A DNA stretch of 63,393 nt, the filler included, from Stramenopiles sp. TOSAG23-2 (lineage: Eukaryota), in the NCBI GenBank assembly GCA_900128395.1. It is 3 parts of 3 records of this genome, joined end to end, with 100 filler letters (N's around TTAATTAATTAA, not from the genome) between each part and the next. Parts side by side here need not be neighbours in the genome. Positions count along the whole stretch, not along the records: positions 1 to 21,139 come from LT649542.1; 2 more parts are not named here. One strand, given 5' to 3'. Below the pieces are notes generated by a model. The model was not told the DNA's origin. It saw nothing but the letters and a program-made list of their open reading frames with translations, and searched no databases. Positions 2,417 to 18,347 of the stretch are shown in pieces. The translations under genes and the position numbers were made by a program. Position 1 is the stretch's first letter. Each line of letters starts with the position of its first letter.

Positions 2417-3028
2417 TCATCGGATTGGTGATATATGTGGCATCGGACATAAAGAAATATCATATTCATTAGGTCCTGGTGATTCTTTTGCGTTGTGAAT
2501 AGTCCACTCTAAGTCACTCTTTGGATTGGAAGTACTAAAACGGCCACCTTTGAGACGATCCCCTAAATCTTGATCCGGCTTATATTGATTAGGGCCTGGT
2601 GTTTCAGCAGAACGTAACATTATTAAATCTACTGCTGATTTTGGATTTGCATCACTTATTTTTACGCCCCTATTTCCACTTCCGAAAGATGGCACAACAT
2701 ATTCATTCGGCCCTGGAGTCTCTGCAGCTCTTAACATTTTAATTTCAATGTCGCTCTTCGGTCTGGCATTCGAGAAACGACCACCGCCAGGCTTGCTCCA
2801 TTTCCCGGTGGCACTGCATGGCTGAATAAAGTTCTTTGGTCTATTTTTTTTTTTACGAGGCTGGGATAATCGATTTATAATAGCATTGTTAATTGGGGCT
2901 AGTTTAGTTTTGTTGGATGGTAATGGGGAATTATTTTCAATTTTCGAGATTGACGACGATTTTTTCCGATGGCCATTGTTTGTATTTATAGGTGACAATT
3001 TAATGCCTTTGGTTTTTCGATTAGACAT
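2417..3028 (-). CDS. Sperm-tail PG-rich repeat (STPG/SHIPPO/ODF3-like) axonemal protein
   Basis: Three repeats with ETPGPNEY, ETPGPNQY and ESPGPNEY, each preceded by a G(G)RFSxxxPKS-like unit. Confidence 0.8.
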   Translation of the reverse strand: MSNRKTKGIKLSPINTNNGHRKKSSSISKIENNSPLPSNKTKLAPINNAIINRLSQPRKKKNRPKNFIQPCSATGKWSKPGGGRFSNARPKSDIEIKMLRAAETPGPNEYVVPSFGSGNRGVKISDANPKSAVDLIMLRSAETPGPNQYKPDQDLGDRLKGGRFSTSNPKSDLEWTIHNAKESPGPNEYDISLCPMPHISPIR

Positions 3029-3171: not shown

Positions 3172-3896
3172 TAATACTACTATTAATACAATAATAATAA
3201 TAGCTGAAGAAGCTATGCAACCTATATGAGGTCGTAATACCAGAATAGCTCCTAACCTGGAATACACAGTAACAGTGTTATGGAGAATTAAAACTCTTCC
3301 AGCTACTATACGAGGCGTAGAGATATTAGCTACAAGGCAGGTACTGTTACTGTATCTAGACTCTTTTCTATGTAGCTTATAGCCTGATGATGCTGGATAG
3401 CCTGGATAGCTGGACGATAGCTAAGCTACGAGATGCTAAGATAGCTCTAGCTATTAATAGCTTCTGAAGTAGTGAGTAGGGTTGCCCTATTAATATGTAA
3501 AAAAGCAAAAAGAAGAAACGCTATATACTACCACCAGTATACCACGTGGTGGTACAACATTACAACCAGCTTTTCCAGTTCTGGAATGCCAGAATGTGGT
3601 GCTGGATGCCAGCCTGGCCAGCCCAGTTGCCCTGGAAGATGCTGGAATGCCAGAAGGAATGCCAGAATGCCAGGAATGCCAGGAATGCAGCAGTTATTTT
3701 TTCTTTTTTTCATCAACAACGCGACACCAACACACAACATGATATCAATAATAATAAAAGAATAAGAATAATAGTCATCTATTTAAATTATACATATAGT
3801 TCTAGTTATATATTGAAAATGATGCTAATAGTAGTAATTTTATTAAACGACATACCATACCGATAAATACCTCGATATAGATGCCGCTGTTGCAAG

Positions 3897-6800
3897 ATGC
3901 AGCAAGACACAAAAGTTCCCCCGGATACATCTTCTCGTATCATCAAAGGCTATATATCATCGTTGAATAATGAAGAGGAAGAGCGGGAACAAGCAGAAAG
4001 GTCAATTGCTATGTTAGAAAATGCTATTAAGCAAGTATCAAGCATATCAAATCCTCTAAACCCTAGTTTCGCTGTGCCTGCGAAGCCAGAAACAGCAAGA
4101 GACAGATCAAGGAAGCGCAGAGGCGAATCGTTGCGAGAGAAAAATTCACGACTGTTAAAACCAAAGGCACCAGCTAAAATTCCACTTTTTTCAAGACTAC
4201 ATACTGTAAATAAAATTAATGATAAAAACTTTCTTTTGAATGAGAAAGAACGAAAACAAGTATTAGCTAGAAAAGCTGAAATTGTTAAAGCTAGATTCAC
4301 CTCGAAAGGAAGTTTTAACGTAAGGCCAACACAAGTTGCTCCTCCCATTCCTGTCTATGTCCCTCCGAAAAATGCAAAAAAATCTGTTCGTATGGCAGAG
4401 TTAAGATATACAAAAAAAAGAAGAAAACGACCAAAACCATCACCAATGGGGGCTCCTATTAAGCATTCAATTATTATAACACCAACAATTTCGGAAAGAA
4501 TTGGTATGTATTATGGCTCTACTATGTTATCCCCGAGAACTTTAAGCGCATTGGCAAAAATAAATGGTGAAAAAGCCAAAGAGAAAAAATTTCGATGTTT
4601 ACTAAAGCCGTTTCCAAATGTCGTTAAACAGGATGTTGGACGTTTAAGTGTAACAAAACATCGAAATATTTTATGTTCTGTTTATGAATTGGAAGATGTT
4701 CTATGGAACGATTATGAATTACATTATTCACGTTCAATTGGTGATAAAGTAATACATTTACCGAGTGGTAAACTATGTGTAATAAAGCATTTGAAACCAC
4801 GTCATCGCCGGTACATATTAGAACATGTTCAAGATAATAAACCCAATATTAAAGCAGATATAGCTAATGCCAATATTGTACAATTTTCTGCAAAGCGAAC
4901 GGAAACTTTACCAATTTCAGATGACAATCGAACTATGTTTCTTGCAATCTGTAAAAATATAAAAGAACAGCAAGATTTTCATCTAAAGCGAGCACTTTTG
5001 ATGCAGTATGATGAATGGGTGCATCAACATTTAAAGAAAATTAACCAATTGCCATCGTATCCATTCGTAAAGTTTGAAAAAAATAAAGAAGTAGAGTCTA
5101 TAGGATTAAATGCTATTCGTCAGAGTCATCCCTTGTATTTAAATGCAAAACATCATATTTTACAAGACAAGGCTTCATATAGTGGCCTTACAAACATAAT
5201 AAACAACAATGTTACTGACAGCATGGACAATATGACATTCAATGAAACAAGGAATAAAATAAAAATTCAACACATTTTTTCAGTACATCATGCAAGCGAG
5301 TTAATTTTATCCATTTTCGATTCTTTTCCACCAGATCATTTATTTAAAAGTAGGAACATGTCAGAATTACCATGTAATGCGCGCCGTTATCGTTCTCAAG
5401 AAACAGCCAGAAGAAATCTAATTATAGCAAAACTGGACAATAAATGGAGAAGAAATATTATAAAACAAATATGCAGTATACACGATTTATTAGGTTTTGA
5501 TTTAAAACGTTTCAGTTCAGAGGAAGAATATAATAAAAGTTTTACAAAACGATTAATTAGAAGGGTTGAACTACAGATGGTGCAAGTATTACGATTTCAT
5601 TTTGAACAATGGGCTGCAGATTTTGTCAGCCACATGTATCTCTTTCATAAATTACGACACCCATATTTTAAAGTCCAGGTAAATGTTGGTTATAAAAAAA
5701 ATAACGTGACTGAGAAGACGCAGTTTAGTGGTGCAAGCTTAAATCCATTTATAGTTCCAACATTGACGGATCTCGAATGGCCCTTTGTACAAATCGCAGC
5801 TCTAGCGGATGATATTAGAAGTCGAATAACACCTTTACGTGGAAGCATCTGCCCCTTACTGCCTTATGAAGGGCGACCCTTGTATGATCCATTGAGTGTA
5901 TATAGCCATGTTCCGATGTTGCATAAAAAATTATGTCTTCTTTTTGATAAGACAAAAATTGCTGTGGAAAATGTTTTAGTAAAATATACTTATGATTTTG
6001 AAACAATGGATAATTCATATCACGCGTATGACTTATTGGAAAATAGGATAAAGTTTACAACTGTCAATAGTTATACTGATCAAACTTTGTTCATTAATAC
6101 CGCCGGCGCTAAAACATTTCTTCATGTTCAAATAAAAGCGAAGCGAGAGAATCATTTAGAAAAAGATAATTTAAAAGTAGAAAAGTTAATGAAAAGTGCT
6201 TTGATAGAGTTAAAGGACGCGCTAGAATTAATTGCGAGGGTACCTAGTACGCCAGAGGAATGGGCAGAACAAATGGCCTTTAGGCGAAATAGGCATCAAT
6301 TTGCTAGAAGAATTAATGTAAATGTTATTCAAGTCGTTCTTCAGAAAATTAGTCAGCTAGAATTGTTTTTCCTAAGATTTCCTCGTGATGTATACAAAGT
6401 GCTTTATTCCATACAAGAACACAATGTACAAGTATTTAATGGTGCAAGAGACATGGAACAAATGTTAGCAAAAACTGGCAAAAAATTAAGCTCAGAATTT
6501 CGTAAGCAACAAGGAGCTTACAGGAAGAAGATAGAGATTTTAACTGAAAATTTACTTGCATATGAAGAAAATACAAATATGGAGTTAGCATTAGACTTTG
6601 TTGATGATCTGGAGCAACTGGGGGATAAAATTACTGTGATGTTGAAACAGCGCGAAACAATGATTTTTCACCAAAAACAGTTGGAAATTGAAATTAAAGC
6701 CAAAGACAAATTTTTGCAACTTGATCATCTCTGTAATGAACATAAAATTTTTTCGACACTATGGAAAGTGGGTGGTGAATGGTCCACATTTAGTGAAAAT

Positions 6801-9800
6801 TGGATACATGGCGAATTTAACAGAGTAAATGTCATTGAAGTAAAAGAAAAATTGGAAGAATGGACACCGCTAATTGTGTGGCTCCTTGCAGAACCATTGA
6901 AAGAGAGAAAAACACCACGCTCCGTTGCAAATAGATTGCGTCTCTTGCTTCATGGTTTCAAAAAGCATGTTCCAAATCTTGAGCGATTGAGACATCCCGG
7001 AATGCGACATCGGCACTGGCAGAAAATCGGTTTACGCCCTGAAACGTTCCAGGAAATACTAGATGCTAAGATAGAAACATCACTTATTATCAAAGTAAAT
7101 CATGTTGCGGATGAGGAATATAAATTAGAGATGGAAGTGGATAAAATGCAAAAAGACTACAAAAAAGATCCTATTTTCAAATTCGATTCGATGCAAAATA
7201 TATTAGACATGATACAAGTAACTTCATTAAGGGTCAAGGTTATTTTACAGTCGCCATATTCCGAACCCCATGAATTGGAATTTTACGAATGGCTTCATGA
7301 ATTAGAAGAAACAAAACATTTTTCTTCTATATGGAAAAGTATACACGATCAATGGAATCGATTAAAATTTTTACAAACAGATAAATCATTTGAAACACTT
7401 TGTACAAAAGCGCATGCTCATTTATTGAAGCTAAGCCAAACATTATCGCTTCAATTGGAGCATATAAGCAATAAATCAATGGTAAAAGTTGCAACCGATG
7501 ATAACATAAATAATGCATCTGCTATGATCAAGATATTAAACCGTGTTGGTTTACAAACAGATTTGTACATAAAGGAGAAACGCATGGCATACCCGCGGCT
7601 GTATTTATTGTCGCAAGAAGATACGCTTGCTGCATTAAGAAACGAAACCGACGTTATGATAAAATTGTTTGGAAATGGCACATTAAAATATTGCAATGAG
7701 AATGAAATGATCAGCATCCATGGGCAGTCTATTTTGTTGGAAAAGTGTATTGAAGAACGGAAGATTGAGGAAAATCAACTGTTAGAACAAGCAAAGGCAA
7801 AATTAAAAGCGATGGAAAAAGCTAAAAAGATACAAGAAAAAAGCGGGAAGTCTCCGCCTATCGTTGAATATGAGCCAGAAACGATTCCAATACTAAAGAT
7901 CATTGAATTAAGAATGAAATATTCATATCAGCGTGATTTGCGATACATGATAAAACATATTGAAAGAGATGAGTACAAAAATATCAATATTAAAACTGCA
8001 AACATTTACATGATTCAACAAGCTCTTCATATATGTTGGACGTCGAGTATGGAAAATATTATGTCATTAAAAGACGGCAGTCGTATCTTGGACAAATTGA
8101 AACATCATTTAAAGCACATAAGCGATCAAATTGATGTCCTAATCCCATCATATAAGTCGGCGACAAATTCTACTCATGCTACATCAAACTTGTTGTTACT
8201 TCTCATAGAAGTCAGAGATAAAATAGATCATGTTATTAAGAAGCATATTAGAACTATCGATTCCTTTGGATGGTATAGTTTAGTACGCACATATTTATCT
8301 TCTTCAGATAAATCTGCGGCAATAACAAAGGTTGGTTCTAGTGAAATTAAGCATGAAAACGAATTCATTGGAGGATACTCAAGAGCAATAATAACTCCTT
8401 TAACATATCGTTGTATACAAGCTATGTACATGTCATCCGTCGGTATGTTACATGGCGCTATATTACAGGGTGCAAACCAATTAGGAAATTATCGTGATGG
8501 AATTGTGTTTGATATGGCAGCATATTTAGGAAAAATTTATGTACCGTTATATTGTACGCCTCTTATGGATAGCAATGAAATCATTCGTATAATGAAAGGA
8601 ATAGTATCTCTAGGTGCGTGGGCATTGTTTAAATCACCAAGAAAGTTCTCTGTCAATGTCACGCAGACAATTGCTACAATTGTATCACATGTTCAAATTG
8701 CATATCAAGAAAGCGTAGAAAACATATATGTTGGAAAGCAAGAAGTTCAATTTTGTAAGCCTACCTTTTTCTTTGTTACTCGAGGGAGTGGCAAGTCTAC
8801 TTTACCTATGACTCAAGGATATACACCAATACAATTTTCACGCCCTAATTTTGGACTAGTGAGTGAACTTTTGTTGGTAACATATGGTTTTAAAGATGCT
8901 AGAATTTTATCATTGAAACTAGTAGCATGTCTTGTTGCGTATGGTTTGGAGCCTCAGGTTCAGAAAGTGGTGGAGCGTTCTGCAACGCTTTTAAATGATG
9001 CATTAAAATCAGGTAGCAAAAACTCGATCGGCGATTCAAAAGAAATAGATGAAGGGGCAATTATCTCAGCAGCATTAAAAAGTTTCGTTCCTTCTTCCTC
9101 TGCATTTGTTATTGATTATTTTGGCGGCTCCATGGTTATTGATAAAGTACAATCGACTCAGAAAAAAGTAAATTTCACTGAAGAAATAAATCGTGTAGCA
9201 ACATTATTGAATAGCACGGTAGGATATGAACGTAGTATGCTAGTCTCTGGTCAAATCCATTCCGGAAAAACATTAGCAATAAAAAAAACAATAGGCGAAA
9301 ATGGGCGTGTCTTACCCGTGTATATTGATTCGTATATAAGCATTGAAGATTTATGGGGCGGCATGGTTACATCAAGTCGCTCCACTAAGAAGAAACAAGA
9401 ATTTGTATGGTCAAATGGAATAATTGCAAAGGTCATGAAACAATTATCCGAGATCAATGACCATGAAGAAGCGGGAAAAGAGGATAATAGTAGTAAAAAA
9501 AGTTGGATTGTGTTTGATGGTGTTCTTACGCCTGATTTTACAGATGCGGTTGAGACATTACTACGCCAGAAGCCTAGGATGTTTCCAAGTCCAGTTAATG
9601 ATAACTTTTACTTATCCAAAACTACGGAGATTGTTTTCGAAACGGTGACTATAGAAAGTTGTTCCCCGTCGTTTGTAACAAATTGCACATCAATTAATAT
9701 CCGCGATACCACAATATATTGGCCTGCAATTTTCACTTTAATCAAATTTAAGCGCACTGATAATGTTTTAAAAACATATTTGGATAAATGTAAGTTATTC

Positions 9801-12800
9801 TTTTTTAATGAGCAGCATGAAGCAAGTGCGCATTATGTTATATTAAGAACAGTGACAACCATGAAAAACATTATGAATAGTTTGCAAAACGTCATATTAT
9901 CTCAAAATAAAGTAAAATCCACTTCAAAAAAGAAAATACCTGAAATAGTAATATTTTTTGCCAGCATTTGGTCTTTCGGAGTTGAAGCTTTAATTGGTGG
10001 ATTCAAAGAACTGACAAAAATTGATTCTTTTTTTAACGATATGGCAAAAGAAATGCATATTTCGTTTCCAAAACGATGTGGCATATTTGATATCCAAATA
10101 GATCTAAATACAAACTTATTTACTCCATGGACAACGACACAAAACGTAAAAACACTAAAAGGATTGCAAATTCGAAGATTAAATTACATTTCAAGTATGT
10201 TACTTCAGAATAAAGTCAATGTATGTGTAGTCGATCCGGGAGCTGTGAATGTCTCAAAACTGGAACCTGAATTGACAAACGAACTAATGAAAATTGACAT
10301 TACAGCATTTAGTACACAAAATACCCCTTGCTCCTTCCATAAGAAAATATTACCATTATTAGAAAAGGAATCTAGTAACAGGTACAGGCCAAAAAAACTA
10401 GATACGACGTTAATCGTTGTTATCGATGATGTTAATGTGCCATCCAAAAACAATTTGAAGCATATTGAACATTCCAGATGTTATGCTGATTATTCTGGCT
10501 GGTGGTTTCCCAATGGTAATTGGTGTAAAGTAGACAATGTTGTCTTTTCCATCTCTTGTCCATCTAAAAAAATAAATAGCAAAGGCAATAATACACAATG
10601 CAATAGGCTATTAAAAAACTACGCTTTGCTACTGAATGAACAAGTTATTTTGGAAAGCGCGATTCTCAATACGTTCCAAGCAAAATTGGTAAAATTATGT
10701 ATGAATGCAAAAGCTAGCGATGAAGTGAGAAATTTATCAAAAACTATTGCTGGAGTGTCAGATAAACTCCATCGCGCTGTTAATCATGCATTTGAAAAGC
10801 AAACGTCAACAACAATTTTCACCAACGAAGTTTTTAACCGCATCTACTATTCATTTGAAGTGGTAGATCATGAAAATTTTACAACACCATTAAATTACAT
10901 TTCACTGTGGCATCACTCGGTGCAACATGTATACGGAGACCACTTAGCATTACACCGGGATAGAAAATTACTACGAGAGACCATTGAAGCAGTTATACAA
11001 AAGGAATTGCCAGAATACTCTGCAAGCTTGAGCCAAAGGCAACTGTGTTACTATGAACCTATTTTATATAGACGAAACAAATGGGAAGAAGGTTTATCAT
11101 TCGCTGAATCATGGAAAGAAATGGGTATCGCTGGGAACGATGGCCAACCTGGATTACACGAGCAGTTTGTAAAAGAAGTTCTTAAGATTTCTCGTGTTAT
11201 TCGATCAAAGAGGTTATGTCCTCTTGTAATTTTTGGTGATGATCGTACGGCTCTTTGCAAACTCGTCGGTAGCTCAAGTAAAATTTTAGGTTTTAAAACT
11301 GAAATCATTGAAATGCGATCGTTGTTACGCGATGATGTGAAGTCACAAAACAACACCATTTTAATAGTTGGCAATTGTTCATGGGGCACTATGACAAAAC
11401 AGGCATTTGATGGGGGTCCATCTACTATAAGCGTAATTTTGTCAAAGCAGGATGTGTTAAAAACAAATGCTAGGATTGTATATATAGTACAATCATCTGA
11501 CAAACATGCTTGTAAGTATTGGAGAGACCACGGAATGAGCTTTGCATCTATGATATCTACAAGTCAACCACCGAGTTCGTTTTTAATGAAGTCTATGAAT
11601 AATTTGATGGAGGATACAGATGATAGATCAGCCGCGATACCGTCGTTAACTAGTATTTATAGACAAATATCCAATGTTTGGCAAATCAACTTTGGAATTC
11701 CGTGTATACCGAGACAGCTTGAAGATTGTGTTAGACTGGTTTCAACTTTAATCACCAACTATCGTAAGAATACGATCTTAGTTGCAGAGGATTATAAAAG
11801 AAATGAAGAAAAAATTATTAATCTTATGAACAATATGGAAAAAAATGATGAAAGAATTAAAGGTATAGAGCTAGACATAAAACATTTTCATAAAAAAATT
11901 GATGGCGAAAACCACAAGATATACAAATATGAGGATCGATTGAAAGTTACTGAAAAGGATACAGAGGATTATGCTGGTAAACTTGACCAATTAGCACAAA
12001 CAGAAATCGTCTTAGTGGAGTCCACATCTTCCAATTTAAAAACATTATTCAACTCGTATAAAAATATTTTGCTTTCAATGGATGGTGATGAAGAAGGACG
12101 AGAAGCGCTAGTTAAATTTTTAAATAAAGGAAAATCAAAAAAAAGTAAAAAGAAAAAAGCTTCCAAGAAGCCAGCTTCTTCTTCTGCAAAGATTTTATTC
12201 CAAGGACTTGTATATATATTTGGAAAGTCGGTAAAGGCAAAAGATGCTTTTAAGAAGATGAAAGCTTTAATCAAAATGAAAACTGCATCAAAAGAAGGAA
12301 TATCAGTCAAGCTAATACCTAGCAGTATGGATGAACAAACTATTCGACTTTTCTCTGCATTTGTCGATACGGCCGAATTCAATGAATTGCTAATGGATGA
12401 AAACAATGGACAAATAGTTGTTTCATGTGCTCATTGGATAAAAGAAGTGAATAAAATGATCCAATTAAAATCAAACTTTGAAACAAAAAAGGCTCAACTA
12501 ACAAAACGGATGCTTGATGCTAATACTAATAAGGCAAAGTTAGAAAATGAAAGCTCCAATTTACGTGCTAAAATTGAGGTCGGAAGAAACAATGTCCAGA
12601 AATTTAGCAATGAACGTGATAAATTGCAAGAAAAAGTAGCACGTTCTAGCATAGACACGGAAGATTGCAACAGTATTTTAGAAAGAATGCAATCATACCG
12701 AAAAAAATGGGCAGACCATATGGAGCGTCATGAAAGGTTCTCGAAAACATGGTTGGGCGACATAATACTCACCGCAGCGTTTGTAGTATTTGCAGGTCCC

Positions 12801-15800
12801 TTGTCATTAAAATTTCGAAAGCGTTGTTGGAAAGAATGGAGTAAACTTTTAAATAGCATGTCAATCGAAAGTACAAAAATTGTGGATTCTTCGTTAAAAG
12901 ATGAAAGTGATAATGCAAATCTTAAGAATGGTAGTGATGACGAGAAGCTAATTTCTGCACCTAAAGCTTCTCGCTTAAGTGTACTAAGAACATTTTTGCC
13001 TCCGTTACCGTTTCATCCGTTGTCTTTGCAGCAATCTGATGTTAAAGAGAAAATCGAAGAAACACAACAAGAGCATATGATTGAAAATACGTTAATACAA
13101 TTTAACAGTCCATCAAACACTGTTATAGTTATCGACCCACGACATTATTATAAACAATGGTGGCACAAAATATTTGATGCGTTTGAATCTGTATCGCATA
13201 TAAAACCTGATTTTGGGAAGTCTATTGATGATTTTAAAATAATTTATATTCCTACACTACCCACAGTAGGAAATGCCACTTGGTATGATAGCACAATTAT
13301 AACTATTGATTCAAACGATCACAGAATTGTAACGGAGGAGTTTATTCATGGATTTGCGACCTCATGCAGCCAGAAAGATTATTTGAAGAAATATCATTCT
13401 ATTTGGGAAGATACTATAATAAAATGGCATAATGAGAAAATACTTGAGCAACGTATTCGTATTTTATGGAACAATACAACAGAAAATTTAGATGTAGGTG
13501 ATTCTTACATAGTTGAATTACTCTCTGCATTAACTGATCTTAATCAACAATATGGGTTTGTTGTAGAAACAAGGACTGACGATATTAATGAATTGCTGCC
13601 GATAGTAACATATGAAAGAAAGCAATTCGAAGAAATTAGCAATTTTACTACAATTGTATTTAACATATTAAGTTCAACTAGAAGCATTAACTCATTTTAT
13701 TATATGGACGTCCAAGCATTTATCGTTGCTGTCAATCCGGCTTTAATTGAGTTATTTAATAATAAGGAGAAATCACAAGATACGGAAATCCCAACAGTTG
13801 TTCAGGCAATCTTCAAACATTTGAATTTATTTATACATTCTAATGACGAAATCATGCTATATTTAATGATTTGGTATGCACAAGAGGTATATTTTAATGG
13901 TACAGAAGACATCATTGCAAACGAAACTTGGGTATACCTTATATCGAAAATAGAAAATTCAAGGAAAAGTGCAATAAAGAGTGGCATGCGAAGTAGCCTG
14001 CTAAAGACCAAACATAAAAAAATGGACGTTTTAAAGTCAGTTCGTGGCAATAAGAAAAAATTGGAGAGCTTGAAAGAGTGGTTTCCGGAGGAAATGTGGC
14101 AAATTGTTATTGAATTGTCCCATTCTTTACGAGAATTTTATCATTTTCCGCAAAGTATGTTGAATAATGATATTACCAGGTTGAAAAATGGACAAGAACT
14201 AAGTTGGAAATCTTGGTGGATTGAATGCAATTCAATCATTAAAAACGAGGCATATGAACACATCGGTACTCAGCTATTTCACCTTGATATGCCATTGATT
14301 CCTTCCTTAAAAAGTACAGCAATTACACGCTTAGTGATTTACAATGCTTTTTTCCCACAAGCAACTGTCCATTTATTACAAGCTACTTTTGAAAATAATC
14401 AAACGTTTCAAAAAATCTTGAAATGGAAAAATTCCCGTTACACACTCACAAGGAATAAGAAATTAGTTGACTTTCTTGTAAACACGCCAAGTTTCAAACA
14501 CCATACATATTCCATATCTTGCGCAACTAGTACAAATTTAGTCTTGAATATTCTTGATGCAGCATTACTGTCGGGCGTGAAATTTGAAAGTTCGAATGCA
14601 GGAAAAGGTGGCATTAAATTTCTTTCAAGTAGTGCAATCGGGTTTCCACAAAACAGTAACATCTTACGCAATGCAATGTCAGATGGCGGGTGGATAGTGC
14701 TGATGCGACCGGATATGGAAAACATGAAATGGATAAACAGTTTGCAAGCTTTTATACGATCATGCGGAAGAGCCAGATCCGTCCATCAAAAGTTTAAATT
14801 AATATTGCTATTTAATTTTGATGCTGGAATCGGTAGCGTGCCCGAAGATATGATTGCAAATACAAGTAGATTTTTGCTTGAACCAATCAAAGACGTTTAT
14901 GGATATATTATAGAACTCTGTAATGCCCAAGATTGGTCTCATTTATCTTTAGAAGATAGAATTGTTCAATTTACCATTGCATTTTGTACTGGTATGATGT
15001 ACAAGCGCAGTAAAGCCGGTTCATTATTTCGCAGTAGTGATTATGAAATTAATGATTCTCATTACTCTAGAATTTTAACTTTGTTAAATGATCCGAAGAT
15101 ACAAGCAGCAATATCAAGAGTTATTGGAATTGTTAAAAAGGTTGACGATGAGATGGAAGGCAAAGAAATATTGAAAGCAGAATTACTACATATGGTGGAG
15201 CGAATGTGTCTTCTCGGGTCATTTGAACTGAGTGAAAATAAGATTATACGGCGCACTTTGGACCATGTTTGCTCCGCATTACCATTCTTTAGATCAGATT
15301 TTGGTGGAAAGGACTCTATCTCAAAATATGCAGTGGAAGATACTCCTAAGTTAAGAACAGTTATTCGTTCGACAAGCCAGGCTATGTCATATGCTTCTAC
15401 GTTGGGTCAAAATTGGTTTTCAAACGCAGGCTTTGAAGGAAATTCGCGAGATGTTATATTTTTTTATATGTTGCGTCGATGGAATGCAGCAAAAAAATCC
15501 TTACAAAAATGTCACACTAAACAAACATTTGAATTAGAAGGGGAAATTTCTGCCAATATTGGTAAAGGTCTCAATCAATTTGGGGAATTTTTGAACAGAA
15601 TTTTGTCATTCGTTTTGAAATATGCAAAGCTACTTAATAATGTTGTAATCAAGTCAACTCTGACTGTTGCTGAAAATGTTGTGCTAAATGAAGAGATAAA
15701 CATACATCGTTATCTCTTAACGTCATTGCAAAAACAGATTGAGTTCTGTCTATTAAAATATGATAGAGGGGAAGAAGATGAAAGTGAAGAATTAAAATCG

Positions 15801-16664
15801 TTAAATAAAATAATTGGTAGTATTGCTGATAACGAAAGTGGTTCTGCTGGTAATGCATCGATAAAAATTAATAATACTGTAGAAGAAGAAAGAGGGAAAC
15901 CGCATTATGATATTGATACAATGAATGCAAAACTAGTTATGTCGAGCTTAAAGAATAACATTGTCCCAACATCATGGAATTCATGTTTTAAAGCTAAGGA
16001 ACCAATGGAATGGATCAAGCAACTTGGAAAACGTATCCGCTACTTTAAGAAATGGGCAACGTCTGGGACGCCATTAAAACATTCATTACCAATGTTTTCG
16101 TCTCCTCATAATGTGTTTTTTATAGTAAAGTATGCATTTGCAAGACAACAACAATTGCCACTAAGCGCGGTAGTTCTGGTTTCAGAACATTTAGCAAATG
16201 GTTTGTACAAGCGAAATAGTCGCTCTTCGCAAAGTTACACAAAAACAAAAATTTGTGTTGAAGGCTTATATGCACAAGGTATAGAAATCGACGAGGAAGG
16301 CAAAATTTTAATTTCACAACAAACACCACTTTTAGTAAAAGCACCAGCTATGAATATTTATGCATTTGATAGAAACAATTTGAAAGGTGATGATTTTTTA
16401 ACAGCCAAAGATTGTCCTATTTTTGGTCACTTAACATCCACAAATGATGATGAAAACGCTGATGCACTATGGTTCAACTGTCGTAGGGAACGCTTAAATC
16501 ACGTTGTGGACCTATATTTAGGTCCATTTGTAGATGAAAATAAAGAAATTGTATTTGTAGATCTTAATGATAACGTTGGGGGAGGAGGTAATATTAGTAC
16601 TGTGGGTGACCAAGCTACTACCATTTTAGATGTTGTTTTGTATTGTTCTGCTGTAGAAGAGTAA
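3897..16664 (+). CDS. Divergent dynein heavy chain-like protein (4255 aa) with degenerate ATPase motifs
   Basis: Uninterrupted 12.8-kb ORF with dynein landmarks in the correct order: LRHPGMRHRHWQKI and KRMAYPRLYLLSQED (tail/linker), ENEFIGGYSRAIITPLTYRC (AAA1 entry), GQIHSGKT and SWIVFDG (AAA2), IVVIDDVNVP (AAA3), stalk coiled coils, LGDIILTAAFVVFAGP (post-stalk), and NNIVPTSW (C-terminal domain). Confidence 0.9.
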   Translation: MQQDTKVPPDTSSRIIKGYISSLNNEEEEREQAERSIAMLENAIKQVSSISNPLNPSFAVPAKPETARDRSRKRRGESLREKNSRLLKPKAPAKIPLFSRLHTVNKINDKNFLLNEKERKQVLARKAEIVKARFTSKGSFNVRPTQVAPPIPVYVPPKNAKKSVRMAELRYTKKRRKRPKPSPMGAPIKHSIIITPTISERIGMYYGSTMLSPRTLSALAKINGEKAKEKKFRCLLKPFPNVVKQDVGRLSVTKHRNILCSVYELEDVLWNDYELHYSRSIGDKVIHLPSGKLCVIKHLKPRHRRYILEHVQDNKPNIKADIANANIVQFSAKRTETLPISDDNRTMFLAICKNIKEQQDFHLKRALLMQYDEWVHQHLKKINQLPSYPFVKFEKNKEVESIGLNAIRQSHPLYLNAKHHILQDKASYSGLTNIINNNVTDSMDNMTFNETRNKIKIQHIFSVHHASELILSIFDSFPPDHLFKSRNMSELPCNARRYRSQETARRNLIIAKLDNKWRRNIIKQICSIHDLLGFDLKRFSSEEEYNKSFTKRLIRRVELQMVQVLRFHFEQWAADFVSHMYLFHKLRHPYFKVQVNVGYKKNNVTEKTQFSGASLNPFIVPTLTDLEWPFVQIAALADDIRSRITPLRGSICPLLPYEGRPLYDPLSVYSHVPMLHKKLCLLFDKTKIAVENVLVKYTYDFETMDNSYHAYDLLENRIKFTTVNSYTDQTLFINTAGAKTFLHVQIKAKRENHLEKDNLKVEKLMKSALIELKDALELIARVPSTPEEWAEQMAFRRNRHQFARRINVNVIQVVLQKISQLELFFLRFPRDVYKVLYSIQEHNVQVFNGARDMEQMLAKTGKKLSSEFRKQQGAYRKKIEILTENLLAYEENTNMELALDFVDDLEQLGDKITVMLKQRETMIFHQKQLEIEIKAKDKFLQLDHLCNEHKIFSTLWKVGGEWSTFSENWIHGEFNRVNVIEVKEKLEEWTPLIVWLLAEPLKERKTPRSVANRLRLLLHGFKKHVPNLERLRHPGMRHRHWQKIGLRPETFQEILDAKIETSLIIKVNHVADEEYKLEMEVDKMQKDYKKDPIFKFDSMQNILDMIQVTSLRVKVILQSPYSEPHELEFYEWLHELEETKHFSSIWKSIHDQWNRLKFLQTDKSFETLCTKAHAHLLKLSQTLSLQLEHISNKSMVKVATDDNINNASAMIKILNRVGLQTDLYIKEKRMAYPRLYLLSQEDTLAALRNETDVMIKLFGNGTLKYCNENEMISIHGQSILLEKCIEERKIEENQLLEQAKAKLKAMEKAKKIQEKSGKSPPIVEYEPETIPILKIIELRMKYSYQRDLRYMIKHIERDEYKNINIKTANIYMIQQALHICWTSSMENIMSLKDGSRILDKLKHHLKHISDQIDVLIPSYKSATNSTHATSNLLLLLIEVRDKIDHVIKKHIRTIDSFGWYSLVRTYLSSSDKSAAITKVGSSEIKHENEFIGGYSRAIITPLTYRCIQAMYMSSVGMLHGAILQGANQLGNYRDGIVFDMAAYLGKIYVPLYCTPLMDSNEIIRIMKGIVSLGAWALFKSPRKFSVNVTQTIATIVSHVQIAYQESVENIYVGKQEVQFCKPTFFFVTRGSGKSTLPMTQGYTPIQFSRPNFGLVSELLLVTYGFKDARILSLKLVACLVAYGLEPQVQKVVERSATLLNDALKSGSKNSIGDSKEIDEGAIISAALKSFVPSSSAFVIDYFGGSMVIDKVQSTQKKVNFTEEINRVATLLNSTVGYERSMLVSGQIHSGKTLAIKKTIGENGRVLPVYIDSYISIEDLWGGMVTSSRSTKKKQEFVWSNGIIAKVMKQLSEINDHEEAGKEDNSSKKSWIVFDGVLTPDFTDAVETLLRQKPRMFPSPVNDNFYLSKTTEIVFETVTIESCSPSFVTNCTSINIRDTTIYWPAIFTLIKFKRTDNVLKTYLDKCKLFFFNEQHEASAHYVILRTVTTMKNIMNSLQNVILSQNKVKSTSKKKIPEIVIFFASIWSFGVEALIGGFKELTKIDSFFNDMAKEMHISFPKRCGIFDIQIDLNTNLFTPWTTTQNVKTLKGLQIRRLNYISSMLLQNKVNVCVVDPGAVNVSKLEPELTNELMKIDITAFSTQNTPCSFHKKILPLLEKESSNRYRPKKLDTTLIVVIDDVNVPSKNNLKHIEHSRCYADYSGWWFPNGNWCKVDNVVFSISCPSKKINSKGNNTQCNRLLKNYALLLNEQVILESAILNTFQAKLVKLCMNAKASDEVRNLSKTIAGVSDKLHRAVNHAFEKQTSTTIFTNEVFNRIYYSFEVVDHENFTTPLNYISLWHHSVQHVYGDHLALHRDRKLLRETIEAVIQKELPEYSASLSQRQLCYYEPILYRRNKWEEGLSFAESWKEMGIAGNDGQPGLHEQFVKEVLKISRVIRSKRLCPLVIFGDDRTALCKLVGSSSKILGFKTEIIEMRSLLRDDVKSQNNTILIVGNCSWGTMTKQAFDGGPSTISVILSKQDVLKTNARIVYIVQSSDKHACKYWRDHGMSFASMISTSQPPSSFLMKSMNNLMEDTDDRSAAIPSLTSIYRQISNVWQINFGIPCIPRQLEDCVRLVSTLITNYRKNTILVAEDYKRNEEKIINLMNNMEKNDERIKGIELDIKHFHKKIDGENHKIYKYEDRLKVTEKDTEDYAGKLDQLAQTEIVLVESTSSNLKTLFNSYKNILLSMDGDEEGREALVKFLNKGKSKKSKKKKASKKPASSSAKILFQGLVYIFGKSVKAKDAFKKMKALIKMKTASKEGISVKLIPSSMDEQTIRLFSAFVDTAEFNELLMDENNGQIVVSCAHWIKEVNKMIQLKSNFETKKAQLTKRMLDANTNKAKLENESSNLRAKIEVGRNNVQKFSNERDKLQEKVARSSIDTEDCNSILERMQSYRKKWADHMERHERFSKTWLGDIILTAAFVVFAGPLSLKFRKRCWKEWSKLLNSMSIESTKIVDSSLKDESDNANLKNGSDDEKLISAPKASRLSVLRTFLPPLPFHPLSLQQSDVKEKIEETQQEHMIENTLIQFNSPSNTVIVIDPRHYYKQWWHKIFDAFESVSHIKPDFGKSIDDFKIIYIPTLPTVGNATWYDSTIITIDSNDHRIVTEEFIHGFATSCSQKDYLKKYHSIWEDTIIKWHNEKILEQRIRILWNNTTENLDVGDSYIVELLSALTDLNQQYGFVVETRTDDINELLPIVTYERKQFEEISNFTTIVFNILSSTRSINSFYYMDVQAFIVAVNPALIELFNNKEKSQDTEIPTVVQAIFKHLNLFIHSNDEIMLYLMIWYAQEVYFNGTEDIIANETWVYLISKIENSRKSAIKSGMRSSLLKTKHKKMDVLKSVRGNKKKLESLKEWFPEEMWQIVIELSHSLREFYHFPQSMLNNDITRLKNGQELSWKSWWIECNSIIKNEAYEHIGTQLFHLDMPLIPSLKSTAITRLVIYNAFFPQATVHLLQATFENNQTFQKILKWKNSRYTLTRNKKLVDFLVNTPSFKHHTYSISCATSTNLVLNILDAALLSGVKFESSNAGKGGIKFLSSSAIGFPQNSNILRNAMSDGGWIVLMRPDMENMKWINSLQAFIRSCGRARSVHQKFKLILLFNFDAGIGSVPEDMIANTSRFLLEPIKDVYGYIIELCNAQDWSHLSLEDRIVQFTIAFCTGMMYKRSKAGSLFRSSDYEINDSHYSRILTLLNDPKIQAAISRVIGIVKKVDDEMEGKEILKAELLHMVERMCLLGSFELSENKIIRRTLDHVCSALPFFRSDFGGKDSISKYAVEDTPKLRTVIRSTSQAMSYASTLGQNWFSNAGFEGNSRDVIFFYMLRRWNAAKKSLQKCHTKQTFELEGEISANIGKGLNQFGEFLNRILSFVLKYAKLLNNVVIKSTLTVAENVVLNEEINIHRYLLTSLQKQIEFCLLKYDRGEEDESEELKSLNKIIGSIADNESGSAGNASIKINNTVEEERGKPHYDIDTMNAKLVMSSLKNNIVPTSWNSCFKAKEPMEWIKQLGKRIRYFKKWATSGTPLKHSLPMFSSPHNVFFIVKYAFARQQQLPLSAVVLVSEHLANGLYKRNSRSSQSYTKTKICVEGLYAQGIEIDEEGKILISQQTPLLVKAPAMNIYAFDRNNLKGDDFLTAKDCPIFGHLTSTNDDENADALWFNCRRERLNHVVDLYLGPFVDENKEIVFVDLNDNVGGGGNISTVGDQATTILDVVLYCSAVEE

Positions 16665-16980
16665 AGGAAATATATATATATTTGCGAACTTTCTCGTATG
16701 ATTGATACGTAAATATGCATAATGCACTATATATATTTAAAAATAATTCTCTTATTTTAATATATATATTAATATATTATAAAAAATTCTCTTATTCTAA
16801 ATATATATGGATTTATAACAAGTGTAAACTTCTTTTAGATATGATATTACGGTTGTATGATAAGATATAAATAACAAAGGTAATGATATTCATATCATTA
16901 TCAGATATTATACCGTATGTATGATATCTATGAACATCATTAGGGGTATATAATATATATATTATAATTACCGGGATTCA

Positions 16981-18347
16981 TTACGAAGCTTCAACATTGC
17001 CACAATTCCCAGAAACCGGTCCCCAACCAATTTGCTTTTTTGCTAAATCAAATACAAGATAATAATTTCTCATGGTTGTATCACCAATAATAAAACCAGA
17101 TCCACCTGCTGAACCACCATCTCTTATTCCTAAACAATATTGATCACTCTTCGTAGCAAGAGGTGAGCCTAACAAAAGATAATCTTTGGAACTCATCTCT
17201 AATTTAGTACCATCCAAATTCATAGTTAGTGATGGATATGCATCTACCTCTTCCTTTGTTAGTTCAACACATTCATTTTTCCAAAGGGCATCACATTGGG
17301 ATAAAGATGAATCGGAGCACATAGATGATTGAAGGGAATTCATAACATTTGTAGGTGCCAATAAAATATTTGTTCCAGTATCCAATATTGCTGCACTGTT
17401 TACTGGAATGTCATTACTTAATGGAGCCATCAATTGCTTTTTCTCCTTGCCAATATGACTTTTACTTGTTGTTAATGTGATTGATTCTACTTGTACACTA
17501 TGAAAACCAAATCCAACATCTGGCACATAATTTACTTTGCCTCCAACACTTAAACGTTCATCAACACCACCAATTGTAATTGTTCCATTGCTTTTGCTTC
17601 CCTCTTTCATGCAAATTGCCCATACATTATCACATTTTCCAGCTGCAACTAGCGATGCAAATACATCCTCATCTCCTCCACTTGTAAAACCCATGACACC
17701 GCCCTGTATATGGAGCGTAGCGTATGAATAAGTGATGTGTTAGAGAGGAAGTAGACGTCAGGCAGATGATGCAACAGAGAAGATAGGGGGGTTCATAGAA
17801 TTTTACTTACAATAATTTTAAATTGATCAAAATTAGTTGTTTGCTTTTCAATAGATCCAACTTTCACAGTTGTCGGTCCTACTCCTGCCAAGGTAACTTG
17901 GTCATTGTATACTTTTCCAGATATCGTGCATACCGCTGTTGGATTTTTTAAATCACATGTTTGATACGAATTGGAAAAAACGTATGGGAATACTGCTTTT
18001 GCACTTTTACTTTGTGTATGATCATATGGTTTATTTGGAGGAGCTGTAGGACATCCATCACAATTTTTACCAGAAATATCTAAATCACCACTACCAGAAT
18101 CAATTGCTACTGGAAAATCAACTGGCGGTGTCCCAACTTGCACAGTAGTCCAGTATATGGCTGTTGGCCAAACAGAGCCGCCAGCCGGAATAGACGATCC
18201 ATTTGTAAGTATTGAATGGATACGTGACGTTGGTCCTGAAGGATACATATGTGTATGTAGATGCATATTTGAAAAAGATGATGCTACAACATCTAATCTT
18301 GCAATTGTCATAAATAATATGAGAAATAAACTTGATGAAATTTTCAT
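16981..18347 (-). CDS. Secreted/lysosomal pepsin-family (A1) aspartic protease, 2 exons (18347-17811, 17703-16981), 419 aa
   Basis: Signal-peptide-like N-terminus; catalytic VAIDSGS and AILDTGT; C-terminal IIGDTTMRNYYLVFD. Removing the 107-bp phase-0 intron 17810-17704 (GTAAGT...TACAG) gives ...FKII-GGVMGF... in frame. Confidence 0.93.

Follow-up and report, generated by a model that had tools for sequence, protein, structure and literature searches.

A predicted ATPase-dead dynein heavy chain of single-headed inner-arm type in a stramenopile genome assigned to MAST-4

A dynein heavy chain without AAA1 catalytic residues

The analysed stretch of DNA from the genome assembly of Stramenopiles sp. 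TOSAG23-2 (GCA_900128395.1), hereafter the window (63,393 nucleotides), was joined from three pieces with runs of N between them, and only positions 1–21139 represent one contig. On the plus strand of this contig, a single stop-free open frame (3897..16664) encodes a dynein heavy chain (DHC) of 4,255 amino acids (aa). The residues for ATP hydrolysis at AAA1 are missing from it, and the protein is probably a full-length, transcribed, ATPase-dead pseudo-dynein belonging to the single-headed inner-arm type, which may serve as a passive part of the axoneme. A first-pass annotation of the sequence had proposed a catalytically dead, maintained dynein of axonemal type. Alignments, the losses seen in an orthologue and RNA libraries support this proposal, and the frame and motif words that it quoted were each found in place.

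Stops number 338 and 413 in the other two forward frames of 3897–16664; from base composition, an open frame of such length has a chance of about 1e-151. The Pfam scan suggested by the first-pass annotation gave matches above the cut-off for DHC_N2 (6720..7808, E 3.3e-26; a linker of single-headed inner-arm type), AAA_6 (8358..8930, E 1.1e-21; the AAA1 large domain), AAA_7 (10173..10628; AAA3) and the AAA lid. MT (E 3.5e-4) and Dynein_heavy (E 0.006) stayed below the cut-off, and AAA_8, AAA_9, Dynein_C and DHC_N1 had no match in the protein. All 40 sequence matches in the PDB were dyneins, judged by length and context, with DNAH1 (three times) and Chlamydomonas DHC2 in the lead. The divergent N-terminal tail (residues 231–941; 4587..6719) matched no Pfam family, and its similarity of 0.89 to DHC_N2-bearing clusters of the ESM Atlas is taken as a lead only. 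The AAA5-AAA6-C-terminal region (13197..16661), where the sub-threshold Dynein_heavy match lies, scored 0.96 over the last 1,155 residues against AAA_lid_11/Dynein_heavy/Dynein_C clusters of the same atlas (ten of the ten best matches concur), while AAA5 is only poorly alignable. The coiled coils of the stalk, with a microtubule-binding domain (MTBD) that has diverged strongly, were placed at 11754..12827 by alignment and by the MT match.

A structure model of residues 1469–2428, built from a 36-row alignment, reached a mean predicted local distance difference test (pLDDT) score of 72, mostly 70–90 in the AAA1 large domain, the fold of which is retained. All 45 Foldseek matches listed for the model were dynein motors or dynein-bearing axoneme entries. 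Built on mostly canonical rows, the model shows that the sequence fits a dynein fold and not what shape the pocket has. A single-sequence fold prediction (pLDDT 32) was useless and was discarded. By Pfam, Foldseek and the ESM Atlas together, the protein has the parts of a DHC in their usual order: linker, AAA ring, stalk, C-terminal region. The frame is a whole dynein heavy chain.

The nucleotide sites were read from three alignments: phmmer to PDB dyneins, MAFFT with the DHCs of the same genome, and MAFFT of 36 rows (30 comparison rows). AAA4 was aligned only in the second. In all three, the words quoted by the first-pass annotation fell on the columns of AAA1 Walker A, AAA1 Walker B, AAA2 and the AAA3 P-loop. 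The 30 comparison rows have the consensus GPAGTGKT and FDEFNR at AAA1. The window dynein reads HGAILQGANQLGNYRDG at 8451 (8451..8501), so that GPAGTGKT is replaced by GANQLGNYRD, which is two residues longer and sets YRD on the GKT columns. Walker B reads GAWALFKSPRK (8613..8645), with Lys1579 and Ser1580 in place of DE. The sensor-I column holds Gly1630 for Asn, where GSGKST (8784..8801) aligns to NPGYAGRT, and the sensor-II GxR motif is unalignable. At the AAA2 arginine-finger column the protein has Asn1929 (9681..9683; TNC versus the consensus SRxG). We take the arginine of SRxG in AAA2 to be the finger serving AAA1. The roles of the sensor-II and finger arginines in dynein belong to general knowledge.

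Motif search and alignments agree that AAA2 is the exception: GQIHSGKT (9249..9272) is the sole intact P-loop and the only GxxxxGK[ST] anywhere in the protein, and FDG and FE are also retained. AAA3 has lost its P-loop (10221–10256; VCVVDPGAVNVS at 10221) and keeps the Walker B DD. The first Arg of its RxxRHF is retained (Arg2237, 10605–10607) and the second is replaced by Lys. At the AAA4 P-loop position (11220..11255) GVGGSG[RK]xS is lost and the sequence reads PLVIFGDDRTAL at 11220; about 40 residues are absent further into the domain. None of the features of a motile dynein (AAA1 GxxGxGKT, Walker B DE, sensor-I Asn, sensor-II Arg and AAA2 arginine finger) was found. Judged from these alignments, the residues for AAA1 ATP hydrolysis are missing from the protein. 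The claim that the AAA1, AAA3 and AAA4 motifs are erased and only the AAA2 P-loop is kept is thus borne out: none of the alignments restores a GxxxxGK[ST] and DE pair in AAA1, and sensor-I Asn, the arginine finger and an alignable sensor-II GxR join the list of losses. AAA1 is described as the primary ATPase of dynein and AAA2 as a constitutive ATP site in text passages of bioRxiv 10.1101/2020.09.22.308700.

Orthologue fragments and transcription

A search of 1.84 billion representative proteins gave 914 matches. Among the best 150, five short ones were 48–97% identical and 145 were dyneins at 21–29%. No long protein among these 150 stood clearly above ordinary dyneins (best 133 bits, 21–29% identity). 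Two further word-index searches for relatives returned P0002 and P0157 in one case and one canonical-type match in the other. Five proteins (P0002, P0152, P0153, P0004 and P0006) are orthologue fragments from another species, 45–56% identical to the window dynein. AAA1 Walker A and B, the arginine finger and the AAA3 P-loop are lost from these as well, and the AAA2 SGKT is retained. Walker A in P0002 reads GTNHLSNHRN, Walker B has NK where the window protein has KS, and AAA2 reads SPINSGKT, with the GKT kept and the first Gly not. The sensor-I region, NRIQFS, keeps the Asn, unlike the window protein. Conservation against the orthologue was clustered along the sequence in two of four fragments (p 0.0035 and 0.038), and blocks of 80% identity lie in regions unlike canonical DHCs. 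AAA1 is degenerate in part in two other DHCs, P0054 and P0027, which have DQ or DN at Walker B and no sensor I; P0054 stands beside the outer-arm chain of the genome at 0.99 in FastTree.

The transcript check that the first-pass annotation had called for found the gene in RNA libraries. Twenty-two sequencing runs from 10 studies were listed with part of the stretch, 13 of them recorded as RNA. In run X1, contigs covered every one of the 19 bins between 4003 and 16675 and none of the six bins before. A contig of run X7 skips 17701–17809 in the neighbouring gene with GT-AG ends on the minus strand, and the X7 library therefore holds spliced RNA. Contig depth rises toward the 3′ end in runs X3 and X4 and was not used as a measure. 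The dynein gene is likely transcribed.

A still active, non-canonical motor or ATPase, working through residues at shifted positions (Arg1533, which sits in the Lys column of Walker A, or GSGKST) or through RNA editing, is very improbable. Arg in the Walker A Lys column is shared with the orthologue, which also has the sensor-I Asn, and new force properties have been proposed for divergent DHC classes in a study that, in its text passages, does not analyse ATP sites (Kollmar 2016, PMC5100056). Against this, both species have lost the arginine finger and the two acidic residues of Walker B. GSGKST (1630–1635) was rejected as a shifted P-loop: it has no first Gly, its place is the sensor-I loop, and the orthologue does not have it. 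Record 3 of X1 (8497–9716), an RNA contig that runs from Walker B to the arginine finger with Walker A outside it, differs from the genome at five places; Walker B, sensor I and the arginine finger are unchanged in it, and it gives no sign of editing at these sites.

The host genome and its other dyneins

MAST-4 is a common, abundant and uncultured bacterivorous marine flagellate. The 18S gene of the genome matches exactly the MAST-4 probe target given in a probe table (PMC4234645), and we assign the genome to a MAST-4 stramenopile by this sequence. The GC content at third codon positions (GC3) is 0.28 in the dynein gene and 0.27–0.31 in the canonical DHCs of the genome. Therefore, the dynein contig is assigned to the same organism as the 18S gene.

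The genome has 17 AAA_6 matches, several of them degenerate. GPAGTGKT is present at seven loci and p28 light chains are encoded by three paralogues, which shows a working flagellar motor set. Profile scores and trees identified outer-arm, I1-beta, DHC7 and DHC9 chains and pieces of cytoplasmic-type dynein, under class labels that are our own and anchored on PDB matches and on the names of a few sources. No DHC8 that is clearly canonical was found in the assembly, an incomplete and fragmented one (9,146 contigs) in which a 261-aa fragment (C313) is ambiguous. A canonical DHC7-type gene (C1638) is split into two frames near an N run at AAA3, probably by an assembly gap.

Beside these canonical motors, the genome encodes further degenerate DHCs, which the first-pass annotation had missed. 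C1424 (L027, L028) is a second full-length DHC, with a 4,156-aa frame and a single-headed tail. Its AAA1 reads GDEGTYET and VDYDK, the AAA1, AAA3 and AAA4 motifs are lost, and the AAA2 P-loop is the sole survivor. Asn occupies the arginine-finger column, as in the window dynein and its orthologue. A word-index search that covered lengths of 247–788 only found no relatives of C1424. In a third DHC, C1910 (L029, L030), AAA1 is lost within the 1,271-aa part present; its contig consists of two inverted copies at 99.9% identity and is probably an amplification chimera. C4287 keeps the AAA1 GKT and the arginine finger, but has DDFN at Walker B and no sensor I. C4287, C8689, C1875, C2604, C752 and C8532 are strongly diverged DHC pieces, 19–31% identical to their best relatives where measured.

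Probable origin from a single-headed inner-arm dynein

Of 14 PDB matches to the tail-linker piece, 12 were dyneins of 4,069–4,309 aa, single-headed by both size and label; none of the matches was labelled outer-arm, I1 or cytoplasmic. In an LG+C20 tree of 31 rows and 979 columns, of which 29 reference rows were hand-picked from the 142 of the FastTree set, the window dynein fell inside the single-headed DHC7/8/9 clade at 96/99. The terminal branch had a length of 6.1 changes per column (median 0.63), and the row was flagged for odd composition. Plain FastTree trees placed the protein outside all axonemal classes. The nearest rows were DHC8 in the quick tree, and DHC9 followed by DHC8 in the LG+C20 tree. 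Class profiles tied (303, 296, 304 and 298 bits), and assignment by profiles was abandoned for this reason. We suggest an origin from a single-headed inner-arm chain and leave the parent class unassigned. Pairing with C1424 had a support of 0.96–0.996 in FastTree and 88/94, unstarred, in LG+C20; the two proteins score 95 bits against each other, below the 106–117 of the best canonical DHCs. These data do not establish a common origin of the two.

The single-headed type also bears on the possibility of a non-motile assembly or transport partner resembling dynein-X, one that pairs with an active chain or occupies assembly factors without being built into the axoneme as a fixed component. The dynein-X chain DNAHX is described as an autoinhibited heterodimer that is probably unable to bind microtubules (text of PMC11785096), and the MTBD of the window dynein is strongly diverged. 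However, the protein has no DHC_N1 dimerisation domain, its linker and tree position are of the single-headed type, and its stalk keeps a normal length, with none of the lengthening of DNAHX (4,255 versus 5,272 aa). We regard such a partner as rather improbable. The MTBD is of about normal length, and a lysine-rich stretch (12126..12170; Lys in 10 of 15 residues) occupies the place of the first MTBD helix motif of canonical DHCs.

Maintenance and possible function

Two metagenome contigs, L031 and L032, represent other haplotypes and are 99.3–99.4% identical to the window over 12–13 kb. The frame is intact in both, in L031 as a whole and in L032 from codon 169. The coding sequence of L031 shows neither stop nor indel, with 66 mismatches over 12,765 nucleotides compared, and that of L032 likewise neither, with 81 mismatches. 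Haplotype gaps occur only outside the coding sequence (3757, 16678 and 16681). The chance of zero nonsense changes among 86 neutral changes is 0.026. Stops, frameshifts and a missing transcript, the marks of a pseudogene, were found in neither the window gene nor the haplotypes nor the RNA libraries.

The matching contigs refute an assembly artefact for the coding sequence, and the GC3 of the gene equals that of the canonical DHCs. An artefact or contaminant, to which the fragmentation of the assembly, the inverted duplicate in C1910 and the parting of the contig from the two other assemblies at 16727 might point, has next to no probability.

In the reading that we prefer, AAA1 hydrolysis and the AAA1, AAA3 and AAA4 P-loops would have been lost before the split of at least two species. 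No power stroke would follow, since established knowledge ties it to AAA1 hydrolysis. AAA2 may still hold one structural ATP, and the tail may dock on the doublet with the light chains of single-headed dyneins. The ring would be fixed in one shape, so that the protein would act as a passive slot-filler, tether or damper, perhaps with participation of the lysine-rich stalk tip. The length and fold of the protein would be under stronger selection than its individual residues. The role of cross-linker, brake or scaffold named in the first-pass annotation stays hypothetical. More speculatively, and with considerable doubt, MAST-4 flagella may carry a set of at least two ATPase-dead single-headed dyneins (the window dynein, C1424 and perhaps C1910). 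These would sit at regular positions within the 96-nm repeat, where one would stand in for dynein d, whose canonical chain, DHC8, was not clearly found in the incomplete assembly, and they would shape the beat by passive tethering or damping.

Several points weigh against the preferred reading. The distal tail has diverged too far for docking to be read from it, and the protein, its location and its binding are predicted from the gene. The MTBD match lies under the Pfam cut-off, which leaves microtubule binding unproven, and the structure model leans on the canonical dyneins that dominate its alignment. The orthologue fragments, known as protein records, end in unrelated sequence at differing places, for which either sequencing error or broken alleles may account; the clustering of conserved residues was not significant in the other two of the four (p 0.13 and 0.36). 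Four of the 22 runs were examined, all as contigs, and the runs had been chosen by the presence of the dynein gene. Polymorphism within the species is near neutral at the amino-acid level, which weakens the idea of a maintained dynein. The ratio of nonsynonymous to synonymous changes (omega) was 0.44–0.61 between the window and L031 (p 0.002–0.04), the only pair differing from neutral. It was 0.82–1.14 between the window and L032 and 0.72–1.00 between L031 and L032, neither of them significant. These ranges reflect the haplotype pair and the transition weighting, polymorphism overstates omega, and they come with no control gene: the genes behind the dynein in L032 match the genome at only 68–69%. 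Unweighted values (0.38, 0.69 and 0.67) overstated constraint and were replaced by the transition-weighted ones. In a three-way count, 26 of 86 variable codons were synonymous versus 28% expected (p 0.34). The length of the protein is guarded, single residues much less so. The first-pass annotation had read selection from the intact frame; this stands for selection against truncation, with neither stop nor indel, while constraint on amino acids within the species is weak.

These polymorphism data suit a slowly decaying ghost gene, whose useless product is selected only against truncation or whose inactivation is pending. A cut-off tail would poison dynein assembly. Near-neutral omega, the 9 synonymous changes among 35 coding differences in RNA contigs, and an end branch of about six changes per column where the median is 0.63 all agree with such a gene. 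The idea was put forward for DNHD1 in the text of PMC8754002, and the text of PMC5778133 reports that DHCs became pseudogenes in MAST-3A and that nearly every other genome it covers has DHC families. Against it, two species that differ by about 50% both keep the AAA2 GKT and FE, the AAA3 DD and Arg2237 and have both lost the catalytic sites, the blocks of 80% identity lie where canonical DHCs differ, and C1424, as a second full-length DHC, shows the same pattern of kept and lost sites. We consider the ghost gene unlikely and favour the passive axonemal part.

Neighbouring sequences

The window and both haplotypes diverge 63 bases past the stop, at 16727. The 3′ flank up to this point (16665..16727, plus strand) was delimited by contig comparison, and the RNA contigs of runs X3 and X4 stop matching there. 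A polyadenylation site at 16727 was rejected because the haplotypes part at the same point as the RNA contigs. Beyond it, L032 carries an AT-rich element of 400–500 bases, present in dozens of genome copies, followed by other genes, and the divergence reflects either a rearrangement or a misjoin at a repeat. The minus strand (16981–18347) encodes an aspartic protease whose two frames are separated by a GT-AG intron (about 17704–17810), which an RNA contig skips. Upstream, a GC-richer short tandem repeat lies at 3600–3690, where contig L031 starts. A 203-aa protein with repeated PGP words is encoded head to head with the dynein (2417–3028, minus strand); it had no Pfam match at E 0.01 and, we presume, resembles the ciliary SHIPPO/ODF3 repeat proteins.

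Comparison with known divergent dyneins

Among the closest described parallels is DNAHX (sea urchin XP_041462850), a non-motile DHC derived from the outer-arm alpha chain and absent from protists according to the text of PMC11785096 (bioRxiv 10.1101/2025.01.18.633724). Both it and the window dynein are full-length DHCs with a poor AAA1 beside canonical axonemal dyneins. However, DNAHX is described there as a chain of 5,272 aa found in some animals only, which keeps Walker B, traps ATP at AAA1, forms a heterodimer and has an AAA4S insertion, whereas the window dynein is of single-headed inner-arm type, has 4,255 aa, has lost Walker B and the AAA3 and AAA4 P-loops, and has a shorter, not a longer, AAA4. 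Membership in DNAHX fails on origin, length (above 5,000 aa), animal range, Walker B and the AAA4S insertion. The window dynein is best read as having arisen independently of DNAHX, presumably from a single-headed inner-arm chain. DNHD1, reported in the text of PMC11785096 to be needed for cilia, lacks the AAA1 catalytic Walker B residues and, compared by description only, resembles the window dynein as an orphan DHC without that motif. It is class 11 of Kollmar 2016, a metazoan-specific class (PMC5100056), which makes a link unlikely; DNHD1 was not among the library matches that could be named (28 proteins were looked up in all). Convergence is the better reading than kinship, the two being set apart by description.

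Kollmar 2016 distinguishes eight divergent DHC classes, three of them oomycete-specific (14–16), and 75 orphans; its text passages, figures and sequences aside, do not name MAST-4 and do not treat ATP sites in detail (PMC5100056). Like the window dynein, classes 14–16 and the Aureococcus orphans are intact, long-branched stramenopile DHCs whose motor is more diverged than the tail, and AAA5 is unalignable in classes 15 and 16 and aligns poorly here. The search returned no long match above ordinary dyneins, as an orthologous class might have given, which speaks against classes 14–16. Judged by the descriptions, membership of DNHD1 or of these classes is unlikely. Single-headed inner-arm dyneins share with the window dynein the length, the lack of DHC_N1, the linker, the best PDB matches (DNAH1 and DHC2) and the place in the tree; they are only about 20–25% identical to it, and it has lost their nucleotide motifs.

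Non-motile DHCs are thus already known as an idea from animals (DNAHX and DNHD1), which takes from the novelty of the present one. Literature searches, with subscription papers, figures and bioRxiv supplements outside their reach, returned no description of MAST-4 pseudo-dyneins. MAST-4 is uncultured and direct tests are limited. Arguments have been made for orphan dyneins both as ghost genes and as functional components; in most of them the ATP sites had never been looked at. The window dynein goes beyond DNAHX in having lost three of its four P-loops, and its genome has a second copy of this pattern. If ATP at AAA2 keeps the ring intact, this site should be the last one lost, and the present case suggests that it is. 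It also suggests that inactive motors recur as flagellar parts across eukaryotes.

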